From an uncultured Acidobacteriota bacterium (GTDB taxonomy: Bacteria > Acidobacteriota > Thermoanaerobaculia > Multivoradales > DATKCC01), in assembly GCA_963837945.1 (NCBI GenBank), contig CAWIQD010000009.1, forward strand, positions 64,529 through 128,528: a stretch of 64,000 bases of DNA, in the 5' to 3' direction. Position numbers and translations under genes: made by a program. The notes under the pieces are model-generated. The model saw only the letters and a list, made by a program, of their open reading frames with translations. It was not told where the DNA came from and searched no databases. Shown here in pieces: positions 29,488 to 61,053 of this stretch (positions are counted from its first letter, which is position 1; every line of letters begins with the position of its first letter).

Positions 29488-31047
29488 ATGTCTCGTAGCG
29501 TGTGGTTTCTCGCAGTCGCGGTACTTGCCCTCGGCCTGGGCGGTGCGCCCGCCGGCGCGCAGACGGTCGCGCCCGGCGACGACGGCCCGGCCCTGACGGT
29601 GACCGACGGGCTGACCCAGACCCAGGTCGTCCAGGACTTGCAGAACGCCCAGAACCAGGGCCCGGACCCGTTCAAGACCGAGCTCGACTTCTACCGCAGC
29701 CTCGGCCTGATCGTCTTCACCACGCCGTTCAACGAGAAGGACGGCCTGGGGGACGGCCCGTTCGACCCCGACGAGTCGGGCACGCCGATCGACCTGGGAA
29801 GCCGGCCGACGCTCCAGGGCAACGGCCAGTTCCTGCGAGTCAACGGCCTGGACTCCCAGAGCTGCAACGAGTGCCACAGCATCGTCAGCGACGCTACCGT
29901 GCCGCCCGATCTCGGCATCGGCGGCGTCGGTGGCGTGTCGGCCAACGCGATCATCATGCCGAGCCTGATCGACGTCGCCGACTCGTTCGACGACCGCGTG
30001 CACTTCGTCGCCGGCCACGATCCGAACCTGCCCCTGACCGAGGACGGCGTCGCGGACTTCAACGGCCGGTTCGCCAACTCTCCGTTCCTGTTCGGCGGCG
30101 GCGGGGTCGAGCTGGTGGCCAAGGAGATGACCCGGGAGCTCGAGAAGATCCTCGCGGACCTCAAGGCCGGGCCGGGCGGTGTCACCGTCGCTCTTCGACG
30201 CCAAGGGCGTCCACTTCGGCACCGCCACCAAGCTCGAAAACGGGAAGATCGAGCTCGACCTCCAAGGGATCGGCTTCCTTCCCGATCCTCTGAAGCCGCG
30301 GAGCGACGAACAACAGATCGTCGTCCGCCCCTTCGGCCGCAAGGGCGACCGCTTCAGCATGCGCGACTTCGACCTCGGCGCGATGGAGTTCCACTTCGGG
30401 ATCCAGCCGGTCGAGGACCCGACCCTCGAGAGCGAGGACGACGATCGGCGACGGCGTCACCGAACGAGCTCACGGTGCCCGAGATGACGGTGCTCGACCT
30501 GTTCAACGTGACCAACCCGCCGCCGGTCCAGGCGCCGGACGCGGACAGCCGGGGGCGGACGCTGTTCACCCAGATCGGCTGTGCCGACTGCCACCGGCCC
30601 ACCTTCGCCACCGAGTCGCCCAACCTCACTCTCTCCTTCCCCGAGGTCGCGGAGGATCCGGACGCGAACGTCTTCATCAGCATCGATCTGCGGAGATTCG
30701 GCTTCGCCCAGGATCCCGACGGCCCCGGCGTGCTGGTGCCGCTCTACTCGGATCTGAAGCGCCACGACATGGGCGAGGGCCTGGAGGAGGACTTCGACGC
30801 CCTGCGCCGAACGGTCTCCAACCGGGAGTTCGTCACCGCGCGCCTCTGGGGGATCGCCGACACCGGACCCTACCTCCACGACGGGCGGGCGACGAGCATC
30901 TACCAGGCGATCGTCCGCCACGGCGGTGAGGCCGCGCACGCCGAGTCCGCCTTCGAGGATCTCTCGGCGACCGACAAGCGGCACCTCATCTCGTTCCTCA
31001 AGAGCCTCCACACACCGGCTCATCCCAACGAGGACATCACGCCGTAG
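29488..31047 (+). pseudogene. dihaem cytochrome c oxidoreductase (DUF1111 / MauG-CCP superfamily), disrupted by at least two frameshifts (~30175 and ~30440-30465)
   Basis: Signal peptide. CNECHS and CADCHRP haem motifs. C-terminal GPYLHDGRATSIYQAIVRHGGEA typical of CCP/DUF1111. The middle 100 aa are Arg-rich in this frame, while the +1 frame (30179-30487) reads the natural sequence LFDAKGVHFGTATKLENGKIELDLQGIGFLPDP.... Confidence 0.6.
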
Positions 31048-32846: not shown

Positions 32847-33248
32847 TCAGCCGACTTCGCTCATCAGCGCCAGCAGGTTGCCCTCGGAGTCCCGGAAGAA
32901 GGCCATCCAGAGCTCGTAGGTCTCGGTGCGGTGGACGACGTGGGGCTCGCCCTCGAGCTCGACGCCGCGGCCGGCGAGCACCCGGTGCGCCTCGCGCACG
33001 TCCGCGACCCGGAAGTAGAGGACCGACGACAGGTGGTCGTGCTCGGGATTCGAGGGGAGCCCGAGGAGCAGCCGGACGCCGGCGCAGTCGAAGAAGCTCA
33101 TGCCGGGCGCGCCGAACAGGAACCGCACTCCCAGCGTGTCGCGGTAGAAGGCGGTGGCGCGGTCCAGGTCGTGGACGTTGACGGCGATCTGGCCGATCTC
33201 CGAGAGGCCGAAGGCGGCCTCGGGACCGGGTCGGGCGGTGGCATTCAT
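32847..33248 (-). CDS. VOC (glyoxalase/bleomycin-resistance/dioxygenase) family protein
   Basis: IGQIAVNVHDLDRATAFYRDTLGVRF...ELWMAFFRDSEGNLLALM beta-alpha-beta-beta-beta VOC fold motifs. ATG at 33248 preceded by GGAGG. Confidence 0.7.
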   Translation of the reverse strand: MNATARPGPEAAFGLSEIGQIAVNVHDLDRATAFYRDTLGVRFLFGAPGMSFFDCAGVRLLLGLPSNPEHDHLSSVLYFRVADVREAHRVLAGRGVELEGEPHVVHRTETYELWMAFFRDSEGNLLALMSEVG

Positions 33249-33345
33249 CTCGGGGACCTCCTGGTGACGGGCTCTCCGGGCCAGCCGACCGGTTCCGTGG
33301 GCGACGGGCCACGAATTTGACCCGCCGGCGGGCGCCGTGAGATAG

Positions 33346-33358
33346 TTAGCTTGGCTAA
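33346..33358. promoter_or_regulatory. palindromic box TTAGC-TTG-GCTAA in the marR/VOC divergent region (candidate MarR operator)
   Basis: Perfect 5-bp inverted repeat 14 bp upstream of the marR ATG. Confidence 0.3.
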
Positions 33359-33371
33359 GGAAAATAACCGA

Positions 33372-33848
33372 ATGTCTCCCGCCCGTCAAGATCCGTCGCT
33401 CGGCGCCCGCACCGAGCTCGCCGACCGGCTCCACTCGGCGGCGATTCACCTGCTCCGCAAGCTCCGGACCCAGGACGCCTCCTCCGGGCTCACCGCCCCG
33501 CGCCTTTCGGCCCTGTCGGTGATCGTGTTCGGCGGGCCGATCACCGTGAGCGCCCTGGCCGACGCCGAGCAGGTACGCCTGCCCACCATCTCGCGGCTGG
33601 TCAAGGAGCTCGAAGCGGAAGGCCTGGTCGAGCGCCTCGCCGATCCGACGGACGGGCGGGTGCACCGAGTGCGGGCGACGCCCGCGGGCCGCGAGCTGCT
33701 CGAGCGCGGGCGCGACCGTCGGGTGACGCTTCTCGCCTCGGAGCTGGCGCAGCTGACGCCGGTGGAGGCCCGCACCCTCGCCGAGGCCCTGGCGATCCTC
33801 GAGCGGGTCACGCTGCCCCGCGAGCACCCGCGGCGGGAGGAGTCGTGA
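33372..33848 (+). CDS. MarR family transcriptional regulator
   Basis: Winged-helix region TAPRLSALSVIVFGGPITVSALADAEQVRLPTISRLVKELEAEGLVER...DGRVHRVRATPAGRELL. ATG at 33372 behind AAGGAAAA. Confidence 0.75.
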   Translation: MSPARQDPSLGARTELADRLHSAAIHLLRKLRTQDASSGLTAPRLSALSVIVFGGPITVSALADAEQVRLPTISRLVKELEAEGLVERLADPTDGRVHRVRATPAGRELLERGRDRRVTLLASELAQLTPVEARTLAEALAILERVTLPREHPRREES

Positions 33849-42750: not shown

Positions 42751-42777
42751 CCTGGGGCCGGTGAGACACCGGCCCCA
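42751..42777. terminator. bidirectional intrinsic terminator hairpin CTGGGGCCGGTG-AGA-CACCGGCCCCAG between convergent genes
   Basis: 12-bp perfect stem, 3-nt loop, located between the aconitase stop (42699) and the stop of the minus-strand gene (42825). Confidence 0.5.
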
Positions 42778-42824
42778 GGTCGATCGTCACCTGCCTGTGC
42801 TTGCGCGCGTCGGACCCGCGGTCA

Positions 42825-43928
42825 CTAGACGCAGTGGGGCTCGCCTTCCTCGCCGACACCGCAGCAGCACTGCGGCACGACCACCACGGAGTCCCGCAAG
42901 CTCAGCCGGCCGGCCGGCGACACGGTCGCCCGACCGAAGACCACCGTCCGGTGCCTTCGGGCGTCGGCGTACTGGAGCGCCACGTGATCCGTGAGCGCGC
43001 TGCGGACCGCGGAGTTCCCCTGTGGGTCCGAGGAGTCCAGGATCAGCATCCGGTCGACCCCGCCGGCCTTCGCCACCTCCGCCCGGAACCAGAACTCCTG
43101 GGCGCCGGAACGGTCCCGCCAGTCGACGGGTAGATCGAGAGGCGCCAAGTGAGGCGTGGGCATGAAGCGCTGGTTGTGAGGATGCTCCCCCGCCTCCACG
43201 ACCAGGACCGTGGTGCTGGTCCCATGCGGCTGGTAATAGCGGTCCAGAGAGCCTTCCACGTGGGCGACGAAGGCGTCGGACGAGGCGAACTCGACCCGCG
43301 GCTCGCCGGTATCGGAAGAGATCACGGCCCACTCCGGGGACAGGTACCGTCCATCGGATCGCTCGAACGTCCTCGAGAGCCCGAGGCCCGCCGCCTCGGC
43401 GGCCTCGGGCGCGAGCGTCGCGCCGCCGCCGGTCATGATGGTAGTCGTCGTTGCGCCCGGCACGACCGCGCAACCGCCACCGCCGCCACCACCGCCGCCA
43501 CCGCCGCCGCCACCCGACGGTTGACAGTAGGCTCCGACCAAGCTCGAGAGGTCCGAGTCCAGCCACTCCTTGATGCCGACGAAAGTGGTCCCGAATTTAC
43601 TGGTGCTGTTCCAGGTACCGGAGCAGGTGGAGAAGGTACGACTGTACGACAGCCAGGCGCCGAGGTCCGGACTGCCTTCGACCTTGTCGTTGCTCGCGAC
43701 CTGCTGGCCGTTGTCGAGGGTCGTGGACCGGAGGATCATCGTCCTCGAGTTGATGCAGTCCGACTTGGTGATCTGGCCGAAGTGATCGCTTCTGATGAGT
43801 CCGTCGCTGGCTAAGATGCCGGCAGCTGCCCTGCCAGCGAAGCACTGTGCGTCCGCGCCACCCGCCCCTGCGAGGCCCGCGACGACGGTCCAGGCGAAGA
43901 TGCCGAGGGTCCAGCACGCCCCCCTCAT
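42825..43928 (-). CDS. secreted hypothetical protein, 367 aa: Cys-containing N-domain, 14-residue poly-Gly linker, ~220-aa C-domain ending PQCCCGVGEEGEPHCV
   Basis: Signal peptide MRGACWTLGIFAWTVVAGLAGAGGADA. (GGN)14 tract at ~43470-43515. Local GC ~55% versus ~70% background. No family recognised. Confidence 0.55.
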   Translation of the reverse strand: MRGACWTLGIFAWTVVAGLAGAGGADAQCFAGRAAAGILASDGLIRSDHFGQITKSDCINSRTMILRSTTLDNGQQVASNDKVEGSPDLGAWLSYSRTFSTCSGTWNSTSKFGTTFVGIKEWLDSDLSSLVGAYCQPSGGGGGGGGGGGGGGCAVVPGATTTTIMTGGGATLAPEAAEAAGLGLSRTFERSDGRYLSPEWAVISSDTGEPRVEFASSDAFVAHVEGSLDRYYQPHGTSTTVLVVEAGEHPHNQRFMPTPHLAPLDLPVDWRDRSGAQEFWFRAEVAKAGGVDRMLILDSSDPQGNSAVRSALTDHVALQYADARRHRTVVFGRATVSPAGRLSLRDSVVVVPQCCCGVGEEGEPHCV

Positions 43929-44605
43929 CGGCCACCTCCCCGCGACCCACGCTGGAGCACCGCCTGCAGCGGCACGCCGTATTCCTGTCGGAAGCTCTCC
44001 TCGAACGCCGCGGACTCCTTGTCGAGCTGCTCCATCGTGGGCGGACCCGTCTCCCAGAAGGCCGAGACACTGTAGCTGTCGGCGATCCGGGCGAGGAAGT
44101 GGTCCGTGTCCTGGCCCTCGTCGCTCAAGTGGGCCAGCCAGGCGCCGAGCACTCCACCTGTAAAGGCGGCCCGCTCGATCAGGAACGCGTCCCCCGCCTC
44201 GTCGATCTTCTTCGGCTGTCCCGCGAGCTCGTGCAGCATCTTCCTGCCCCGTGCTCCCTGGTCCTCGTCGAAGTCGCCGTAGAGAGAGGTCAGGACTTCC
44301 AGATCCTCATCGGTCGCGGTAAGCCCGAGGCCCCTCAGGAACTGCTTCAAGAAGTCGGGTTCGTCGCGGGCCTGCTTGTCGATCTGGCTGACAAACGTGG
44401 AAAGCCGCATGCCGACCGGGAGGTCCTTATCGGACAAGGTCTTCACCACGGTCTGTGCCAACTCTGCCTCCGGTGGCCGCTGCGCCGAGAGCGGCCCGGC
44501 GACCAGCCAGCCCGCGCCACCCAGGGCGACGAGTACTACAGACAATCCGTGCCTCTTCAAGATCCTTTCCCCTTTCTCGATCCGTTGACGGAGCCGCGAC
44601 GGCAT
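43925..44605 (-). CDS. hypothetical protein with N-terminal TM/signal anchor, 226 aa
   Basis: LSVVLVALGGAGWLVAGPLSA hydrophobic segment, then acidic soluble domain. ATGA overlap with the downstream gene. Lower-GC. Confidence 0.5.
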   Translation of the reverse strand: MPSRLRQRIEKGERILKRHGLSVVLVALGGAGWLVAGPLSAQRPPEAELAQTVVKTLSDKDLPVGMRLSTFVSQIDKQARDEPDFLKQFLRGLGLTATDEDLEVLTSLYGDFDEDQGARGRKMLHELAGQPKKIDEAGDAFLIERAAFTGGVLGAWLAHLSDEGQDTDHFLARIADSYSVSAFWETGPPTMEQLDKESAAFEESFRQEYGVPLQAVLQRGSRGGGR

Positions 44606-44700
44606 GCACAGGACGACTCAGGACAGGCGCGCCGCCGCACTGCCCGGCGACCGGTGCCGCGAGGCCAGGCAGAAGCCCTACACAATCCTTGTATATCCGT

Positions 44701-44729
44701 ATACTAGACGATTCGACATGATCTGTCAA
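44701..44729 (-). promoter_or_regulatory. near-consensus sigma-70 promoter TTGACA-17 bp-TAGTAT on the minus strand
   Basis: Plus-strand tgtcaa (44724-44729) and atacta (44701-44706). Read on the minus strand: TTGACAgatcatgtcgaatcgtcTAGTAT. AT-rich context (~45% GC). ~90-nt leader to the ATG at 44605. Confidence 0.45.
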
Positions 44730-44772
44730 CACGACCGGATGTCGTCTCGACGCATCGTCGGTTCCGGGCGCC

Positions 44773-46218: not shown

Positions 46219-47606
46219 CCCGAGTCCGTGCCGAGCTCGTACTTCTCGAGCCGGCGATAGAGCGCGCTGCGGGAGAGCCCGAGAGCCCGGGCGGCGTCGC
46301 TCACGCTGCCGCCGTGGCGGTCGAGCGCCTTCTGGATCATCACGCGCTCGGCCTCCTCGAGGGTCATCTGCTCGAGGCGGGGCGCGGGCGGCTCGAGGCC
46401 GGTCTGGGCGAGGCCCAGGTCCTCCTCCCGGATCGTTTCGTCGCGCGTCATGAGGACCCCGCGCTCGATCGCGTGGTCGAGCTCCCGGACGTTTCCGGGC
46501 CAGCCGTAGCGGGTCATCGCCCGGGTCGCCCCCTCGCTGAAGCCGGAGAGCGCCTTCCTGTAGCGCCGGCCGTGGCGTTCGAGGAAGCGCCGGGCGAGCC
46601 GGGGAACGTCCTCGCGCCGCTCGCGCAACGGCGGCAGATGGATGGTCACGGTGTTGAGCCGGAAGAGCAGGTCCTGGCGGAAGCGGCCGGCGGCGACCTC
46701 GGCCTGGAGGTCGGCGTTGGTCGCGGAGAGGATGCGGACGTCGATCGTCCGGGTGCGCGAGGAGCCGACCCGCTCGAGCTCGCCGGTCTCGACCACGCGC
46801 AGCAGCTTCGCCTGCTGGGCGAGAGTGATGTTGGCGATCTCGTCGAGGAAGAGGGTGCCGCCGTCGGCCATCTCGAAGCGGCCGATCCGCTCGTCCTTGG
46901 CGTCGGTGAAGGCGCCGCGGACGTGGCCGAAGAGCTCGCTCTCGAAGATGGTGTCGGAGAGGGCGCCGGTGTTGACCGTGACCAGCGGGCTCCTGGCCCG
47001 CGGCGAGAGGCCGTGGAGCACCTCGGCGAGCAGGCTCTTGCCGGTGCCGTGCTCGCCGGTGATCAGCACGTTCGCCTCCGACGGGCCGATCCGCTCGACC
47101 AGCTCGAGCACCGGGCGCATGGCGGGCGCGTCGGCCACCAGGCGCGTGCCGTCGCCGCGCAGCAGCCGGTTCTCGGCCTCGAGCCGCTGGCCCCGGCGCA
47201 GGGCCCGGGCGAGCTCCACCTGGGTGGCGACGAGCGAGAGGAGCCGGGCGTTGTCCCAGGGCTTCTCGATGAAGTCCCGGGCGCCGCGGCGCATCGCCTC
47301 GACCGCCACGTCGACGCTCGCCCAGGCGGTCATGACGACGACCGGCAGGCTCGGATCGACGGCGCGGAGCTGGTCGAGGAGCTCGAGGCCCTCGCGGCCG
47401 GAGGTGGTGTCGCGGGCGTAGTTGAGATCGACGAGGACGGCGTCGAGCTCCTGGGCGCGGACCGTCTCGAGAACGCGCGCGGGCGAGGTCGCGGTCACGA
47501 CCTCGTAGCCCTCCCCCTTGAGCAGCAGGCGGAGAGCGTCGAGGACGTCCTGCTGGTCGTCGGCGACCAGCACGCGGGGGGCGGTCTCGCGGCTCACGAG
47601 GCCCAT
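46215..47606 (-). CDS. sigma-54-dependent Fis-family response regulator (NtrC-like; REC + AAA+ + HTH)
   Basis: REC Asp region VLVDLNY. Walker A GEHGTGKS. ESELFGHVRGAFTDA (GAFTGA variant). GGTLFLDEI, R-finger. C-terminal Fis HTH (AARALGLSRSALYRRLEKY). Confidence 0.85.
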   Translation of the reverse strand: MGLVSRETAPRVLVADDQQDVLDALRLLLKGEGYEVVTATSPARVLETVRAQELDAVLVDLNYARDTTSGREGLELLDQLRAVDPSLPVVVMTAWASVDVAVEAMRRGARDFIEKPWDNARLLSLVATQVELARALRRGQRLEAENRLLRGDGTRLVADAPAMRPVLELVERIGPSEANVLITGEHGTGKSLLAEVLHGLSPRARSPLVTVNTGALSDTIFESELFGHVRGAFTDAKDERIGRFEMADGGTLFLDEIANITLAQQAKLLRVVETGELERVGSSRTRTIDVRILSATNADLQAEVAAGRFRQDLLFRLNTVTIHLPPLRERREDVPRLARRFLERHGRRYRKALSGFSEGATRAMTRYGWPGNVRELDHAIERGVLMTRDETIREEDLGLAQTGLEPPAPRLEQMTLEEAERVMIQKALDRHGGSVSDAARALGLSRSALYRRLEKYELGTDSG

Positions 47607-49525
47607 TCTACGCAGGTCGCCGGCCCCCGCCGGATCAGCCGTCTCCCGCGCAGCGCAGGAGCAACCGCCGCCGGGCCGCGCGGCGCTCGGCCAGTGACAG
47701 CTGCCGCGCCGCCGAGGCGAGCTCGGGCGCGATCCAGCGCAGATCGAGCTCGGCGTGGCGCTCCACCCGGAAACCGCCTCCCTCGAGGAGGGTCACGGTC
47801 TGCCGAAAGCGGCCGGCGTCGTTGGCCGTCTCGTCGTCGGCCGCCGCGGGAGCGCACCAGGAGGCCGGGGTCTCGAGCTTCCCAGACCGTCGCCCAGCGG
47901 ACCGGCCGGACCGCGAGCGGGCTCTGGAGCCCCTCGAGCTTCGAGGGCTCCGGGAAGGCTTCCGGCGCCGGCAGGGCGAGCGAGCGGACCGACGAGCCTT
48001 CCACCAGCCGCGGAAAGCTGGCGGAAGCCGAGAGCTCGACCATGGGCAGGCCGTCGACGTCGCCCTGGCTCCAGCGGGGCGTCCCCAGCCGGGCGCCGGG
48101 GAGGACGCCGTGGAGGACTTCGGTCGCCACCTCGCCGAGCCGCTCCGGGGTCGCCGAGGCCGTCATCCGGGAAAGGGCCCAGGCTCCCGAGCCGGTCAGC
48201 CGGAGCTCGGCTCGCCCGGCGGCGTCGCCGCTCTCGGAGACCTGCAAGTGCACCGTCAGGCTCCGGGCCTCCCGGCCGGCGAGGACCGGCACCGTCGCGA
48301 GCTCCGAGGCCTCTTTGCGCACCACCAGGGCCCGCTGCCCCTGGAGCGCCGGGTGGAGCCAGGTGAGGCCGCCCATCTCCTGGGTGGGGTCGACGAACAG
48401 GTAGCCGCCGCCGGCGGCGTCGTCCGGCCGCGGCGCCACTTCCGCCGCCGGCACGGCCACGATCAGGTGGTTGAACTGGTCGGCGGCGGGGAAGTCCGCG
48501 TCGATCCCCCGAGCTTCGTCGAGCCGCACCAGCGCCGGGTGGGCCTCGATTCCGGCGTCGGCCAGCAGGTCGACCAGGAGCAGCGCCTTGTCCTTGCAGT
48601 CGCCCCACCGGCGCTCGAGCACCTCGGCCGGCGGCGTCGGCCGGTAGCCGCCGACCCCCATCTCGACCGCCACGTAGCGCACTCGCCGGCGGACGAAGCC
48701 GAGGAGCGCCGCGAGGCGCCCGCGCGGGCTCTCGGCCCCCGCGGCCGCCTCGCGGCCCGCGGAACGCACCGCTCCCGAGCCGCGCGGGACGTCCCGGATC
48801 AGGTGCTCGTACCACCGGCCCACGTCCCCCCAGGTCCGCGCCGTGCCCCAGGCGATGTGCAAGACCGGCTGCGGATCCTCGTCGCGCTCCGGCGGCTCGA
48901 GGCCGGTGGCCGAGAGGGTGAGCCCGCCCGCGCGTTCGGTGACCTCGAAGGGGACCGCCCCGCCCTCCTGGGCGACGGCCGGCGGCGGGTCGATCCGCCA
49001 GCGGAAGCCCTCGCCCGCTCCGCGCACCTCGACCGTCAGGCTCTCCTCCGGCGCGTCACCGGCGAAGAGCGGGACCGTGGCGCTCTCGAGCCACGGCTCC
49101 TCGCGGATCTCGTAGGCGACGTTGAGCACCGAGCCCGCGGGCAGCGGCGGGAAGCGCAGCAGCCGGGCGCGCGCCGAGCTGTGGAGGACGCCCGCGCCGC
49201 CCGCCCCCTCGACGGTCGTGACGTCGTCGGCGCCGAGGACCACCCGCGAGCCGTCGGGCCGGAGCGCCCAGCCCGACGCCGAGACCAGCGTGTCGTTGTC
49301 GTCGAGGGGCACCGGGAAGGGCGACCAGGCATCGAGGTCGCCGGCCTCGTCGAGGCGCACCTGCAAGGCCACGCGCTGGTCGAGGACCCCCGCCGGGTCG
49401 AAGGCGAGAACGATCCGGCGCGCGAGCACCGTGTCGCCCCGCGCCGCGGGCGCCAGGGCCGCCGACAGCGCCAGGACGGCGAGCAGGATCGCCCTAGTCG
49501 TGGAGCAGGAGCAGCTTCTGGCCAT
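47594..49525 (-). CDS. DUF3857 + transglutaminase-like domain protein (paralog 1); C-terminal ~90 codons look like out-of-frame text
   Basis: Signal peptide. RWGDCKDKALLLVDLLADAGIEAHPALV is the transglutaminase-like Cys-protease core. After ...GLLVRS the ORF continues as Arg/Gly/Pro-rich sequence, so a frameshift near 47850 is likely and the true end is uncertain. Confidence 0.6.
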   Translation of the reverse strand: MARSCSCSTTRAILLAVLALSAALAPAARGDTVLARRIVLAFDPAGVLDQRVALQVRLDEAGDLDAWSPFPVPLDDNDTLVSASGWALRPDGSRVVLGADDVTTVEGAGGAGVLHSSARARLLRFPPLPAGSVLNVAYEIREEPWLESATVPLFAGDAPEESLTVEVRGAGEGFRWRIDPPPAVAQEGGAVPFEVTERAGGLTLSATGLEPPERDEDPQPVLHIAWGTARTWGDVGRWYEHLIRDVPRGSGAVRSAGREAAAGAESPRGRLAALLGFVRRRVRYVAVEMGVGGYRPTPPAEVLERRWGDCKDKALLLVDLLADAGIEAHPALVRLDEARGIDADFPAADQFNHLIVAVPAAEVAPRPDDAAGGGYLFVDPTQEMGGLTWLHPALQGQRALVVRKEASELATVPVLAGREARSLTVHLQVSESGDAAGRAELRLTGSGAWALSRMTASATPERLGEVATEVLHGVLPGARLGTPRWSQGDVDGLPMVELSASASFPRLVEGSSVRSLALPAPEAFPEPSKLEGLQSPLAVRPVRWATVWEARDPGLLVRSRGGRRRDGQRRRPLSADRDPPRGRRFPGGAPRRARSALDRARARLGGAAAVTGRAPRGPAAVAPALRGRRLIRRGPATCVEWAS

Positions 49526-51439
49526 CGCTGGTCTCGGCGGCAGCGTAGAGCCCGCGCAGCGCCGCGTAGGCCTCGCGGCCGACGAACTGCCGCTCGCGGG
49601 TGTCGAACCGGCGCGTGTAGGTGAGCGCGTGCCCCGCGGGATCGAGGAGCACCTGGGCGGTGAAGGCCCCCGCAGCGCTCGAGTAGCTCGTCGCCTCCGG
49701 CTCCGCCTCGGGGCGCCAGCCGTCGGGCCAGGAGAGGGTCAGCTCGACCTCGTCCCGGTCGGCGAACGGCAGGAGGACCGGCGTCAGGCGGTCGGAGGGC
49801 GCCAGCGTGAAGCGCTGGGCGACCGGCCCCAGGGGCCGGCTGAGGACCACCGCCGCCTGGTCGCCGAGCACGTCTTCCTCCCGTTGCGCGAGGCTCCAGG
49901 CGAGCTCGATCCGAGGGGCGTCCAGGTCCTCGGAGACCGTCACCTCGCTCACGTCGAAGCCGGGGAACGAGGCCTCGAGGTACTCGGTCAGGGCGTCGCG
50001 CCGATCCTCGGAGGTGGCCTCGGAGCGCAGCCACGCCGCCGCGTGGTGGCCCTCGAAGACCAGCCGGCCGGTACCGCTCACCGCGCCGTCCTCGGACAGG
50101 CGCAGGTCGAGCGTGGCGTGGCGCAGGTTGCTCTCCCAAGGCCGGGTCGGGAGCTCGATCTGCTCGGGCTTGCGCCGGCTGAAGACCAGGGCCCCCATGC
50201 CTTCCAGGTCGGCTTCGAGATAGCCGAAGCCGTTGCCCGGCTCGGAGGGATCGAGGAACACCTCCCGCCCCCCAGCCCGAGACGCACGAGGACCTTCTCG
50301 AACCAGTTCGGGTTGGCGAGCGCGAGGTCGATCTGGCCGGAGCTCCGCTCGGCCGCCCAGACCAGGTCGCCTTCGAGGCCGGCGGCGTCGAGCATTGCCT
50401 GGAGGATCAGCGCCTTGCCCGCCGGGTCCGCCCGCTGCGCCCGGAGCATCTCGTCCAGGGTGTCGTCCAGAGAGGGTGCGACCGAGGGGAGGGGGAGCGG
50501 TGGCGATCGAGTCCCGGACGAAGGCGAAGATCGCGCGCGCCCGCGCCTCCGGCTCGGCGCCCGCCGTCCGGGCGATCTCCTTGCCCTTGGAATGAACGGC
50601 GCCCTCGGAGTGCCGGGCCTCGGTGTAGAGCGAATCGAGGACCTCGCAAGTCGACCGCCAGTCGTGAAACAGCGGATAGCGCTCGATGTCCGTGGGCAGG
50701 AGGATGAACCGCGACGACAGGTCTTCGAAGGGGAACGCCTCGGGCTCGTCGGGGATCGGCGGCAGGTCGTCCATCCACACCTTGAACTCGGTGCCGCGCG
50801 CGGTCTTCTGCTGGCTGTGCTCGAACGTCCGGCCGAAGGTGGCACTGCCCCAGGGCGCCGCGGCCACGTCCGCGGGGCACGTAGTAGGTGATCTCCGAGT
50901 GGAGCGTCGGGATCCAATCCTGGAAGTACCACGGGTCGAGGTGGGCGATCGACTCGAAGCGCAGCTCGTAGCGGTAGTCGAGGATCGCGCCCGGCTCGAT
51001 CGCCGGGAACGTGGCGGTGGTCAGGCTCCAGCGCTTCTGGTCGGCCACCGTCTGCTGGAAGAGGGCGTCCTCGGGCACCGGCACCTCCCGCCCGTCGGGC
51101 AGCACCGTGCGCCCCTCGAAGGAGACCAGCCGCACGAAATCGCTGTGGGGCACACGGACCTCGCCGTACTTCTTGCCCTCCTCGGTCAGGAGCTTGATCC
51201 GGCCCTCGACCACGAGGCTCGAGGCCGTCTGGCTGACGAGCGTCCCCATCATGGTGAAGCGGGCGTCGCGGTAGAGGACCACCGCCGGCGCTTCCGGGTA
51301 GCCCGGCACGGAGGACATCTCCCGCTCGCTCTTCGCGACGGGCGGGAAGCCGGCCGCCCGGAGAGCGGCGGGCGAGGCGATCGAGCGGCAGGATCGCCAG
51401 GGCGAGGGCGAGGCGGAGGAGGTTACGGCGTTCAGGCAT
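49494..51439 (-). pseudogene. DUF3857 + transglutaminase-like domain protein (paralog 2), broken by >=4-5 frameshifts
   Basis: Natural-looking segments alternate between three minus-strand frames: signal peptide MPERRNLLRLALALAILP (from 51439), DUF3857 N-domain (50407-51318 frame), TGase-like region (50078 frame: ALILQAMLDAAGLEGDLVWAAERSSG), C-terminal domain (49494 frame). Confidence 0.55.
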
Positions 51440-59158: not shown

Positions 59159-60794
59159 TCAAACCGCGCCGAACTCCTCGCCGAAGCGCCGCACCGCCTC
59201 GGGCGGGCCACAGACGTAGACCGTGTCGCGGGGCTCGAAGCGGAAGTCGGCGCCGAGGTCGAGGATCAGCTCGTCGTCCCGCTCGACCGCCACGACCGAG
59301 CAGCCGGTGCGCTCGCGGATCCGGAGCTCCGCCGGGTCGTAGCCGGCCAGCCGGCCCTCGGCGCTCGTCTTGAGCACCTTGAGCTGCGGGTCGATCGAGA
59401 TCGCCTCCTCGCGCAGCAGCCGGCGTGCCAGGATCTGTCCGGAGACCTGGCTGATCGAGAGGGCGAAGTCGGCGCCCGCCCGGTGGATCCGCTCGACGTT
59501 CTCGGCACGGTTGACCCGGGCGATCACCGGAACGTCCGGTGCGGCCTCCTTCGCGATCACGGTGGCGAAGAGGGTCGCGGAGTCGGTGTCGAGGGCGAGG
59601 ATCACCCCCTGGGTGCTCTCGCCCAGGAGCTGCTCGACGACGGTCGGATCGAGCATGTCCCCCACCAGGTCGACGCCTTCGCCCTCCTTGCGGTCGACCA
59701 CCACCACGCTCTCGCCGGCGTCGGTCGAGGAGCTCGACGACCTTGCGCCCCACCTCGCCGTGGCCGCCGACCACGAACCGCCCGCGCCGGCGCAGAGGCA
59801 CCGCCCCGCTCACCAGCTCGAGCAGGCGCTCGACGCTCTCGTCGGTGCCGGCGATCACCAGGATCGCCCCCGGCTCGATGCGGGTCGAGGCCGACGGCGG
59901 GGCGTGGAGCACGCCGCCCACCCACTGCCCGATGACCGCCGCGCCGGTGCGGGCACCGATCGCCGCCTCCTCGAGCGTCTGTCCCGCCAGGCTGCTCTCC
60001 GGTTGCACCCGCAGCTGGTGGATCTCGAGCCGGCCGAGGTTCTGGACGCCGGCGACCCGGGGGCTGATCCGAACGCTCGCCCGCGCCGCGAGCGCCGCGC
60101 CCAGGACGTGGCGCGGGGTGAAGACCGCCGTGGCGCCGGCGAGCAGCAGGGGGCGGCGGTGGAGAGGCTCCTCCACCAGTCCCAGGATCTCGCCCGCGAA
60201 CCCGGACTGGCGCGCCGCCAGGATGACCGCCGCGTTGACGTCGTCCGAGCCGTTGGCGATCAAGGCCCGGGCTTGCTCGAGACGGGCGCCCTCGAGGGCG
60301 CCGTCGTCGAGGCGGGAGTGGACCACCCGTCGGCCGCGCTCGGCGAGGCGCCGTGCCACGGCTTCGTCCTCCTCGACCACGACCGTCGCGAGGCCCTCGC
60401 GCTCGGTCTGCTCGACCAGCGTCTCGACCGCCGGGCCGTAACCGTAGACCACCAGGTGGCCGGTGAGCTCCTCGTCGAGCTCCTGGGGCAGGCGGGTTTC
60501 GAAGCGCTCCTCGAGGAAGGGGATGAGGAAGATGGGGATGATCAGGAAGACCAGGAAGACGCCCAAGAACTGGAGCAGGACCACGAACAGCACCATCGTC
60601 GGGCTGTGCCAGGCGGCGTCCGCACCGTAGCCCGTCGTGCTCAGGGTCTCGCCCACGAACTCGAGACTCTGCCAGAAACCCCGGGGGCGGCCCTCGAGCC
60701 AGGCCATGCCCGCCATGTAGGCCAAGCTCGAGACGACCAGCAGGACCGGCAGCGAGGCGAGCAGGGCGAGAAGCCGCCGGCGCGAGGTCCGCAT
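59159..60794 (-). CDS. potassium channel protein with tandem RCK (TrkA-N/TrkA-C) domains; apparent frameshift near 59700
   Basis: Pore region TTGYGD selectivity filter, then TrkA-N (GHLVVYGYGPAVETL), TrkA-C. The second RCK (VVVDRKEGEGVDLVGDML…) is in the adjacent frame (59159-59707 ORF) while the original frame turns Arg/Gly-rich. Confidence 0.6.
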
Positions 60795-60847
60795 CGGCCG
60801 ATTGTACGGCGAGCGGCGTCGTCGCCCCGCCGCGCACGACAGCCGAG

Positions 60848-61053
60848 GCTGGAGAAGTCTCGCGCAGAGCCGCAGAGGCGCAGAGGCGCGGCTCATGTCG
60901 ACGAGGGGGGGGTGATGCCCTCCTCGATCCGATGCGCGCCGAAGCTCGAGAGCCCGCATTGGGCGCTCTACCTAATGCCCTCGTGGCCTGGTCCATGAGC
61001 TGAGGCTGCGCCCATCGATCGCCCTCCTCTGCGGCTCTGCGCCTCTGCGCGAG
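60848..61053. repeat. palindromic heptad-repeat element (family 2) as inverted arms bracketing ~145 bp
   Basis: tctcgcgcagagccgcagaggcgcagaggcgcggctc (60848-60885) and cctctgcggctctgcgcctctgcgcgag (61026-61053). The left arm is 38/40 identical to the copy at 11143. Confidence 0.45.

Follow-up and report, generated by a model that had tools for sequence, protein, structure and literature searches.

An operon of two undescribed families of predicted exported proteins, one of which joins exchangeable heads to a constant C-terminal domain

What might two overlapping genes that resemble no described family be doing together, and where did they come from? The question is raised by positions 42825–44772 of the 64-kb stretch of DNA analysed here (the window, by which we mean that whole stretch), where two minus-strand genes, A upstream and B downstream, were originally predicted to form a horizontally acquired module, a secreted protein with a cognate membrane partner. 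Our data lead to a different picture. The stretch forms an operon complete in itself: behind a strong sigma-70-type promoter come a leader of ~134 nt and two genes coupled in translation, and a hairpin closes the unit. Comparison with a related genome indicates that it is an old accessory cassette in its lineage and was not recently imported. Both protein families are undescribed, newness here being a property of the families, set by the lack of any described family and by one search of the structures in the PDB. Central to our interpretation is that B joins one of many unrelated heads to a constant C-terminal domain. We suggest, tentatively and from sequence, that this domain is the working part of an extracytoplasmic effector, that the head would provide targeting, and that the product of A would be a head-specific partner.

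A family with one C-terminal domain and many heads

As predicted, the two genes overlap. The longest open reading frames (ORFs) lie at 43925–44605 (226 amino acids, aa) and 42825–43928 (367 aa), and they are coupled by the shared letters ATGA. The elements originally described for the 367-aa product – a four-cysteine N-terminal domain, a linker of 14 glycines encoded by (GGN)14 and the C-terminus PQCCCGVGEEGEPHCV – are all present, and its parts are as follows.

42825..43928, minus strand: gene B, 367 aa, start codon within the ATGA overlap with gene A
43848..43928, minus strand: predicted signal peptide of B, aa 1–27, ending GGADA-QC, as read from the sequence
43524..43847, minus strand: head domain of B, here called Bn, aa 28–135, with four conserved Cys, from the alignment of head-type relatives
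43473..43514, minus strand: Gly14 tether, (GGN)14, between C135 and C153, from the sequence
42828..43472, minus strand: constant C-terminal domain of B, aa 153–367, from the family profile search and a structural model
42828..42875, minus strand: C-terminal Cys tail PQCCCGVGEEGEPHCV, in which C354 and C355 are near-invariant and C356 and C366 variable

The four cysteines of the N-terminal part are C29, C58, C102 and C135. The glycines (aa 139–152) are encoded by GGTGGCGGCGGCGGTGGCGGCGGTGGTGGCGGCGGTGGCGGT at 43514–43473, an imperfect (GGN)14 tract that could change its length by slippage. A tether occupies the same place in relatives – eight glycines in a relative 84% identical to B, six to ten glycines or poly-proline in others – and is always bracketed by two conserved cysteines. 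The ribosome-binding site (RBS) of B, GGAGG, sits in the last codons of A, which accounts for the conserved GGGR end of the A protein. Ratios of nonsynonymous to synonymous substitution (dN/dS), measured against a syntenic relative (locus L002), are 0.35 for A and 0.28 for B; this purifying selection indicates that both are real genes. An exact copy of the 367-aa protein is absent from a collection of 15 billion proteins, although two other products of this 326-kb contig, those of gene A and of the aconitase gene, are in it; the source annotation may have overlooked B or called it otherwise.

Evidence that B belongs to a rare family defined by its C-terminal part came from an exhaustive profile search among 1.84 billion cluster representatives, which returned 168 clusters at E<=1e-3. 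All 168 matched through profile positions ~145–353, always at the extreme C-terminus of the protein. The N-terminal regions are mutually unrelated: 105 of them fall into ~30 head clusters, and two more clusters are distantly related to the head type found in the window (hhalign 91–93%). The common plan comprises a hydrophobic N-terminus or signal peptide, a head, a cysteine, a Gly- or Pro-rich tether, a second cysteine and the constant domain of ~215 residues; two members, P0107 and P0152, have nothing but a signal peptide ahead of the constant domain. A narrower alignment, used in a metagenome scan, found three loci. Word-index protein searches with B and with the profile of its C-terminal domain were swamped by poly-Gly words, the latter returning six proteins.

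That neither protein resembles a known family, as the original prediction had it, is upheld throughout. Neither A nor B finds anything above threshold in Pfam, NCBIfam, PADLOC, PHROGs or the sequences of the PDB, and no known family emerged from hidden Markov model searches with both proteins or from structure prediction followed by Foldseek with the C-terminal domain of B. Pfam detected no domain, toxin domains included, in 98 full-length members of the B family, nor anything in 10 full-length members scanned earlier. A search of the literature found no description of the family, and searches of viral contigs and plasmids for relatives of either protein were negative.

Constant C-terminal export or anchor domains carried by variable cargo are familiar from the type IX secretion C-terminal domain and from the autotransporter barrel, and B recalls such cargo in the variability of its N-terminal parts and in the terminal position of its constant domain. 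The differences are these: the constant domain is not predicted to be a beta-sandwich sorting tag, nor to be a barrel, it occurs in stand-alone copies without cargo, no cognate secretion genes were seen, and the density of conserved polar residues in B is unexpected for a sorting tag.

Conserved residues of the constant domain

Conservation was counted in 117 members. C153 is kept in 116 of these, C354, C355 and H326 in 115 each and H249 in 114; S216 follows with 108, R186 with 106, N252 and R282 with 102 each, and R254 and R327 with 99 each, and E199 is also among the conserved polar residues of the domain. The two variable cysteines of the tail, C356 (the third of the CCC run, in 87 of 117) and C366 (the last cysteine, in 91), are mostly present or absent together and appear to behave as a local pair would. 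The number of cysteines in the constant domain is odd in 110 of the 117 members. For an exported domain an odd number means that a thiol is left unpaired, that there is a metal site or that a bond joins two molecules. An internal duplication was sought by hhalign; the two halves of the domain are unrelated.

A C-terminal cysteine arm is also a feature of the carrier SoxY, which has a partner, SoxZ. By analogy A and B could be a periplasmic redox, metal or sulfur-carrier pair, in which the unpaired C-terminal cysteine and two histidines would bind copper or zinc or carry a covalent intermediate. The odd cysteine count and the near-invariance of H249 and H326 are what such a pair would lead one to expect, as are two coupled exported proteins in one operon. 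Locus L005 (Thermoanaerobaculia; L005:10753-12628) offers further support: there a B-like gene, with a head rich in Cys and a poly-Pro tether, stands ahead of genes for a membrane protein, for a DUF4198/CarboxypepD_reg-like protein and for a MauE homologue. We nonetheless give a carrier pair little chance: neither protein resembles a carrier of metal or sulfur (Sox, Sco and cupredoxin included), some 30 exchangeable heads are hard to square with a housekeeping carrier, and no conserved metabolic genes surround the family.

Predicted fold and the resemblance to TonB

An AlphaFold2 model of the constant domain, built on a 32-sequence alignment, reached a mean predicted local distance difference test score (pLDDT) of 87 and a predicted template modelling score (pTM) of 0.87. 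The Bn head, by comparison, scored below 50, and a model of full-length B (pLDDT 45) was too poor for use. Foldseek found nothing at E<1e-3 for the constant domain in the PDB or in a viral structure set, and on the strength of the model the domain matches no solved structure beyond a weak resemblance to TonB, which is confined to one sub-domain.

42900..43106, minus strand: TonB-C-terminal-like beta-beta-alpha-beta sub-domain of B, aa ~275–343, from Foldseek, profile and hhalign comparisons

Foldseek aligned this part with 1xx3, the TonB C-terminal domain (E 0.02, probability 0.98, TM-score on target 0.54); the family profile matched TonB chains of the PDB weakly (E 0.28–0.95); and hhalign gave 59–74% probability against the E. 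coli TonB C-terminal domain, the sequence used for the latter being the same as that in the HMMER alignment over its central 46 residues. The Pfam family TonB_C (PF03544) gave no match to the window protein at E<=10, and one of 32 family members reached E 0.096. By these comparisons aa ~275–343 are TonB-C-like, but not a member of the TonB_C family.

This resemblance, the only recurrent one, raises the possibility that the constant domain serves for docking: it would bind an outer-membrane protein or peptidoglycan by strand addition of the TonB/TolA kind, with disulfides to stabilise the anchorage, the heads would be modules on display, whether for binding or with enzyme activity, and A would be a head-binding subunit. 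Strands of the G-x-V-x-V-x-F-x-V type followed by SS and a helix resemble those of the TonB/TolA C-terminal domain, and the order of parts in B – hydrophobic N-terminus, Pro- or Gly-rich spacer, a C-terminal domain that is always at the extreme end – parallels that of TonB itself. Several differences make docking a doubtful account. The match lies below every family threshold and covers a third of a larger domain that has an additional sub-domain and the Cys tail; the N-terminus of B ends in ADA-QC, like a cleavable signal peptide, and does not look like a membrane anchor; the neighbours of the operon are a kinase, a sigma-54 regulator and an aconitase, with no ExbB/ExbD or TonB-dependent receptor genes adjoining; and TonB is without the conserved His/Arg/Cys set of B. 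Moreover, dense polar conservation and stand-alone domains look more like the marks of an active or ligand-binding site than of a merely passive anchor.

Other candidates were set aside. The motif VLVVEAGEHPHNQRFMPTPHLAP (B aa 241–263, window 43140–43208) matches the start of the apical domain of CCT-gamma, a eukaryotic chaperonin, weakly (E 0.026), a likeness (VLxxxxxHPxxxRhIxxP) that we treat as chance, Foldseek having returned no chaperonin. ADP-ribosyltransferase, clan CD (caspase-like) peptidase, sortase, amidase_2 and histidine phosphatase were considered on the basis of motifs and dropped, given that the confident model matched no such fold in the PDB. Searches of PDB sequences with A, B, an alignment profile and three long family members yielded nothing beyond the CCT-gamma match and the weak TonB ones.

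Gene A accompanies one type of head

The upstream gene is probably shorter than its longest ORF would suggest.

43925..44560, minus strand: gene A, probable frame of 211 aa from TTG 44560, from its RBS, the relative L002 and the lengths of homologues
44563..44572, minus strand: RBS of gene A, GGGGAAAGGA, conserved in L002
44483..44560, minus strand: predicted signal peptide of A, MKRHGLSVVLVALGGAGWLVAGPLSA-Q cleavage, as read from the sequence and aligned homologues

Translation probably begins at TTG 44560 rather than at ATG 44605 (226 aa), because the RBS GGGGAAAGGA precedes the former, the upstream ATG is ACG in L002, and homologues are 205–211 aa long. Those homologues carry classical n-h-c signal peptides at their start. 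The product of A is free of cysteine and acidic (isoelectric point of the mature protein 4.6) and is, judging from these features, most likely a soluble exported protein with a cleavable signal peptide. It was originally described as a transmembrane-anchored protein of 226 aa: the length holds for the longest ORF, and what we find in its stead is a probable pre-protein of 211 aa with a signal-peptide-like N-terminus, which speaks against a membrane partner for B. The prediction that both proteins are secreted agrees with the signal-peptide-like N-termini of both. Relatives of A are few, a word-index search finding seven in 5.8 billion proteins, and its matches below threshold are weak (DUF6820, E 0.15; PRK04758, E 0.023; phrog_11473, E 0.006).

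Gene A lies directly upstream of a B gene of the Bn head type in all seven loci with readable upstream sequence (the window, L002, L004, L011, L012, L014 and L015), and in five of the seven the two overlap by 1–4 nt. B genes with other heads (L005–L010) have no adjoining A gene, and one other-head gene has an unrelated exported protein of 321 aa upstream. The proposal that the pair forms a module is thus strengthened by linkage in seven independent loci.

Two further arrangements bear on the relationship between A and the head. The first, a single case, is found at L002:4381-5330 (also L003:1697-2650), where the cassette of promoter, A and B is directly preceded by a further unit: an intact gene A' (214 aa, 50% identical to A) and, after it, what is left of a B' head, frameshifted and truncated. 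The window is without this extra unit. The second is P0030, a protein of 463 aa in which a signal peptide, an A-like domain (aa 57–227, E 4e-25), a Pro-rich linker and the constant C-terminal domain follow one another without a head.

The restriction of A to one head type recalls polymorphic toxin-immunity systems and bacteriocins of the colicin and pyocin kind, in which a constant module is combined with many exchangeable ones and a small partner gene is linked. A and B could accordingly be read as a bacteriocin-like toxin and its immunity protein with inverted polarity: the head would be the warhead, the constant domain would effect delivery or receptor binding (by strand pairing of the TonB-C kind), and A would be a periplasmic immunity protein. 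Many head types on one constant domain, the orphan A' beside a decayed B', the patchy distribution of the family, its lowered GC content at third codon positions (GC3; in the window, L002 and L005, see below) and the tight coupling of the genes behind their own strong promoter would all be in keeping with such a pair. So would certain settings: at L004:65-6138 the A–B pair stands between mobility genes (an IS91-family Y2 transposase with a tyrosine recombinase) and two RHH/PIN toxin-antitoxin modules, and at L006:990-1985 an ORF for a GH-E (HNH/EndoVII) nuclease, a domain type known from polymorphic toxins and here marginal at 25.8 bits against a cutoff of 25, lies just upstream of a B-like gene.

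Even so, we consider a toxin and immunity pair improbable. Described polymorphic toxins carry their variable toxin domain at the C-terminus (PMC3482391), whereas B is variable at its N-terminus and constant at its C-terminus; the partner is exported and lies upstream, not downstream. No known toxin domain was detected in the heads of the 98 full-length members scanned, none was found by PADLOC and PHROGs in A, B, P0030 or the partner at L009, and A and B contain no recognised toxin, immunity or trafficking domain. Members that comprise the C-terminal domain alone would have no warhead, a fusion of A to that domain exists, dN/dS is far under 1, and there are no dedicated export genes nearby.

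How the pair may act

Our preferred, though tentative, account places the activity in the constant domain, because this domain occurs on its own, is densely conserved at polar positions and contains an odd number of cysteines. The domain would present a centre of thiol and histidine residues, either catalytic or for binding a metal or ligand, on a scaffold that is in part TonB-C-like. C153, the pair C354–C355 and the optional local pair would together leave one unpaired thiol beside the C-terminal strand. The head, on its flexible tether, would pick the target, and A would be a soluble, co-exported partner of the Bn head with a protective (immunity-like) or a chaperone role. The site of action would lie outside the cytoplasm, on other cells or on polymers of the envelope.

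Export of A, B and nearly all family members is suggested by a basic, hydrophobic N-terminal pattern with a small-x-small motif, as judged by eye and with a crude hydropathy scan. A number of observations weigh against this account. The odd cysteine count could instead mean an intermolecular disulfide or a metal site, and the account supposes, from sequence, that the conserved His, Arg and Cys residues would lie close together in the folded domain. P0030 lacks H249 and N252, which are replaced (QPHEGR), and its fusion of an A-like domain to the constant domain fits better with A as another head than with A as an immunity protein. A and the head show no charge complementarity, neither gene shows positive selection at the whole-gene level, and the genomic contexts that were read number about a dozen.

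A more specific proposal – that the B family is a new class of N-terminally polymorphic exported effectors, with a constant, new and partly TonB-C-like Cys/His catalytic domain, swappable heads that direct it to different targets and A-like immunity or guide partners, used in bacteriocin-like competition of inverted polarity among soil and sediment bacteria of the Acidobacteriota type – seems to us unlikely.

Should the constant domain turn out to be a new module for catalysis or binding outside the cytoplasm, fitted with exchangeable heads, it would represent a new building plan among bacterial secreted effectors and would give a function to ~170 unannotated protein clusters. The pairing of A with one head, together with the few near-invariant histidines and cysteines, makes the idea directly testable. 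If the protein is only a structural component of the envelope, then A and B are an ordinary, lineage-restricted hypothetical pair. The pair counts as well-defined protein dark matter, not as a new system that has been demonstrated.

Origin of the operon

The original prediction took the pair for a horizontally acquired island, with a foreign-looking promoter, a candidate secreted effector and a membrane-anchored partner. Two features prompted it, base composition and the promoter, the hexamers of which are these.

44724..44729, minus strand: -35 hexamer TTGACA, as read in the sequence
44701..44706, minus strand: -10 hexamer TAGTAT, at a spacing of 17 nt, as read in the sequence

The compositional dip is real. 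GC content in 42825–44772 is 67.2% against 72.1% for the whole window, with 65.6% in gene A and 68.8% in gene B, and the stretch is the window's lowest at scales of 100, 300, 1000 and 2000 nt. Its size was overstated: a fall from ~70% to ~55% had been described, while the lowest 300-nt interval has 59.7% GC and the lowest 100-nt interval 51%. A value of ~45% given for the promoter region applies to the 61-nt stretch around the promoter (46%), the only part that low. GC3 is 0.837 in gene A and 0.861 in gene B, the third and sixth lowest among ~40 genes of the window (mean 0.926, standard deviation 0.045) and just 1.4–2 standard deviations under the mean. Three other long ORFs (59370–60998, 29488–31047 and 32847–33827) have GC3 values of 0.81–0.85, as low as or lower than those of A and B, which are thus not the sole compositionally atypical coding region of the window.

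The promoter, likewise, is present as described: apart from TTGACA-17-TAGTAT, no sequence on either strand of the window matches sigma-70 at 10/12 or better, and 0.1 sites of that quality are expected in a 3.5-kb scan of shuffled sequence. It is less easily regarded as foreign. Sigma-70-like pairs at 17-nt spacing precede gene A in L002, L011, L012 and L014 and, in weaker form, in L015; a regular-expression search found TTGACG/TATAAT, TTGACC/TATGGT and a weaker TTGATC/TATTGT, and TTGACT/CATAAT and TTGACG/CATAAT were read by eye. Recurrence of such pairs upstream of gene A across loci implies that the promoter is part of the cassette and gives no evidence of import.

Evidence against a recent import came from the relative represented by L002 and L003, in which the genes follow one another as in the window: first the sigma-54 regulator, then the histidine kinase, then A and B, with the aconitase gene convergent to them. 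Amino-acid identity between the window and L002 is 85% for A and 84% for B, compared with 89–92% for three neighbours (kinase, regulator and aconitase) and 69% for a DUF6498 neighbour. GC3 of the operon in L002/L003 is lowered in the same manner (0.84–0.87 against 0.93–0.96), and synonymous divergence (dS) between window and L002 is 0.23–0.36 for A and B and 0.35–0.46 for the neighbours. The same site, the same GC3 dip and similar dS in a relative indicate that the operon predates the split of the two genomes and was not recently imported. A composition shared with a syntenic relative is what the original prediction had named as its refutation. Nor do the surroundings suggest otherwise: no Rfam family, tRNA included, reaches its gathering score anywhere in the window, and no mobility gene occurs among the neighbours scanned with Pfam, flanking repeats not having been searched for. 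With the signal-peptide-like N-terminus of A, these data largely refute a recent foreign island, an explanation we hold to be very improbable despite the window's lowest GC stretch, its only near-consensus promoter and the mobile elements beside the L004 pair.

Movement on a longer timescale is another matter. The patchy distribution of the family and the mobile-element context in L004, the one locus in which mobility genes were seen, make older or occasional horizontal movement plausible. In L005 the B-like gene and its three same-strand followers also have lowered GC3 (0.83–0.89 against 0.93–0.98 in neighbouring genes).

Leader, terminator and neighbouring genes

44561..44694, minus strand: inferred 5' leader, ~134 nt, the transcription start being placed from the position of the -10 hexamer
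42751..42779, both strands: perfect 12-bp GC-rich hairpin in the gap that separates gene B from the convergent aconitase gene

The leader has no Rfam match, its predicted fold is no more stable than those of shuffled sequences (z +1.5), and a search for covariation saw none; these three results give no support to a cis-regulatory RNA. A sigma-54-type promoter was not found either, despite the adjoining sigma-54 regulator. At the other end of the operon the hairpin, which has no T-run, would probably terminate transcription from both sides.

Two long ORFs of high GC3 (47594–49525 and 49494–50867) lie upstream of the sigma-54 regulator, and Pfam matches neither of them at E<=1e-5. The former overlaps the start of the regulator by 13 nt, which suggests that it forms one transcription unit with the regulator and the kinase.

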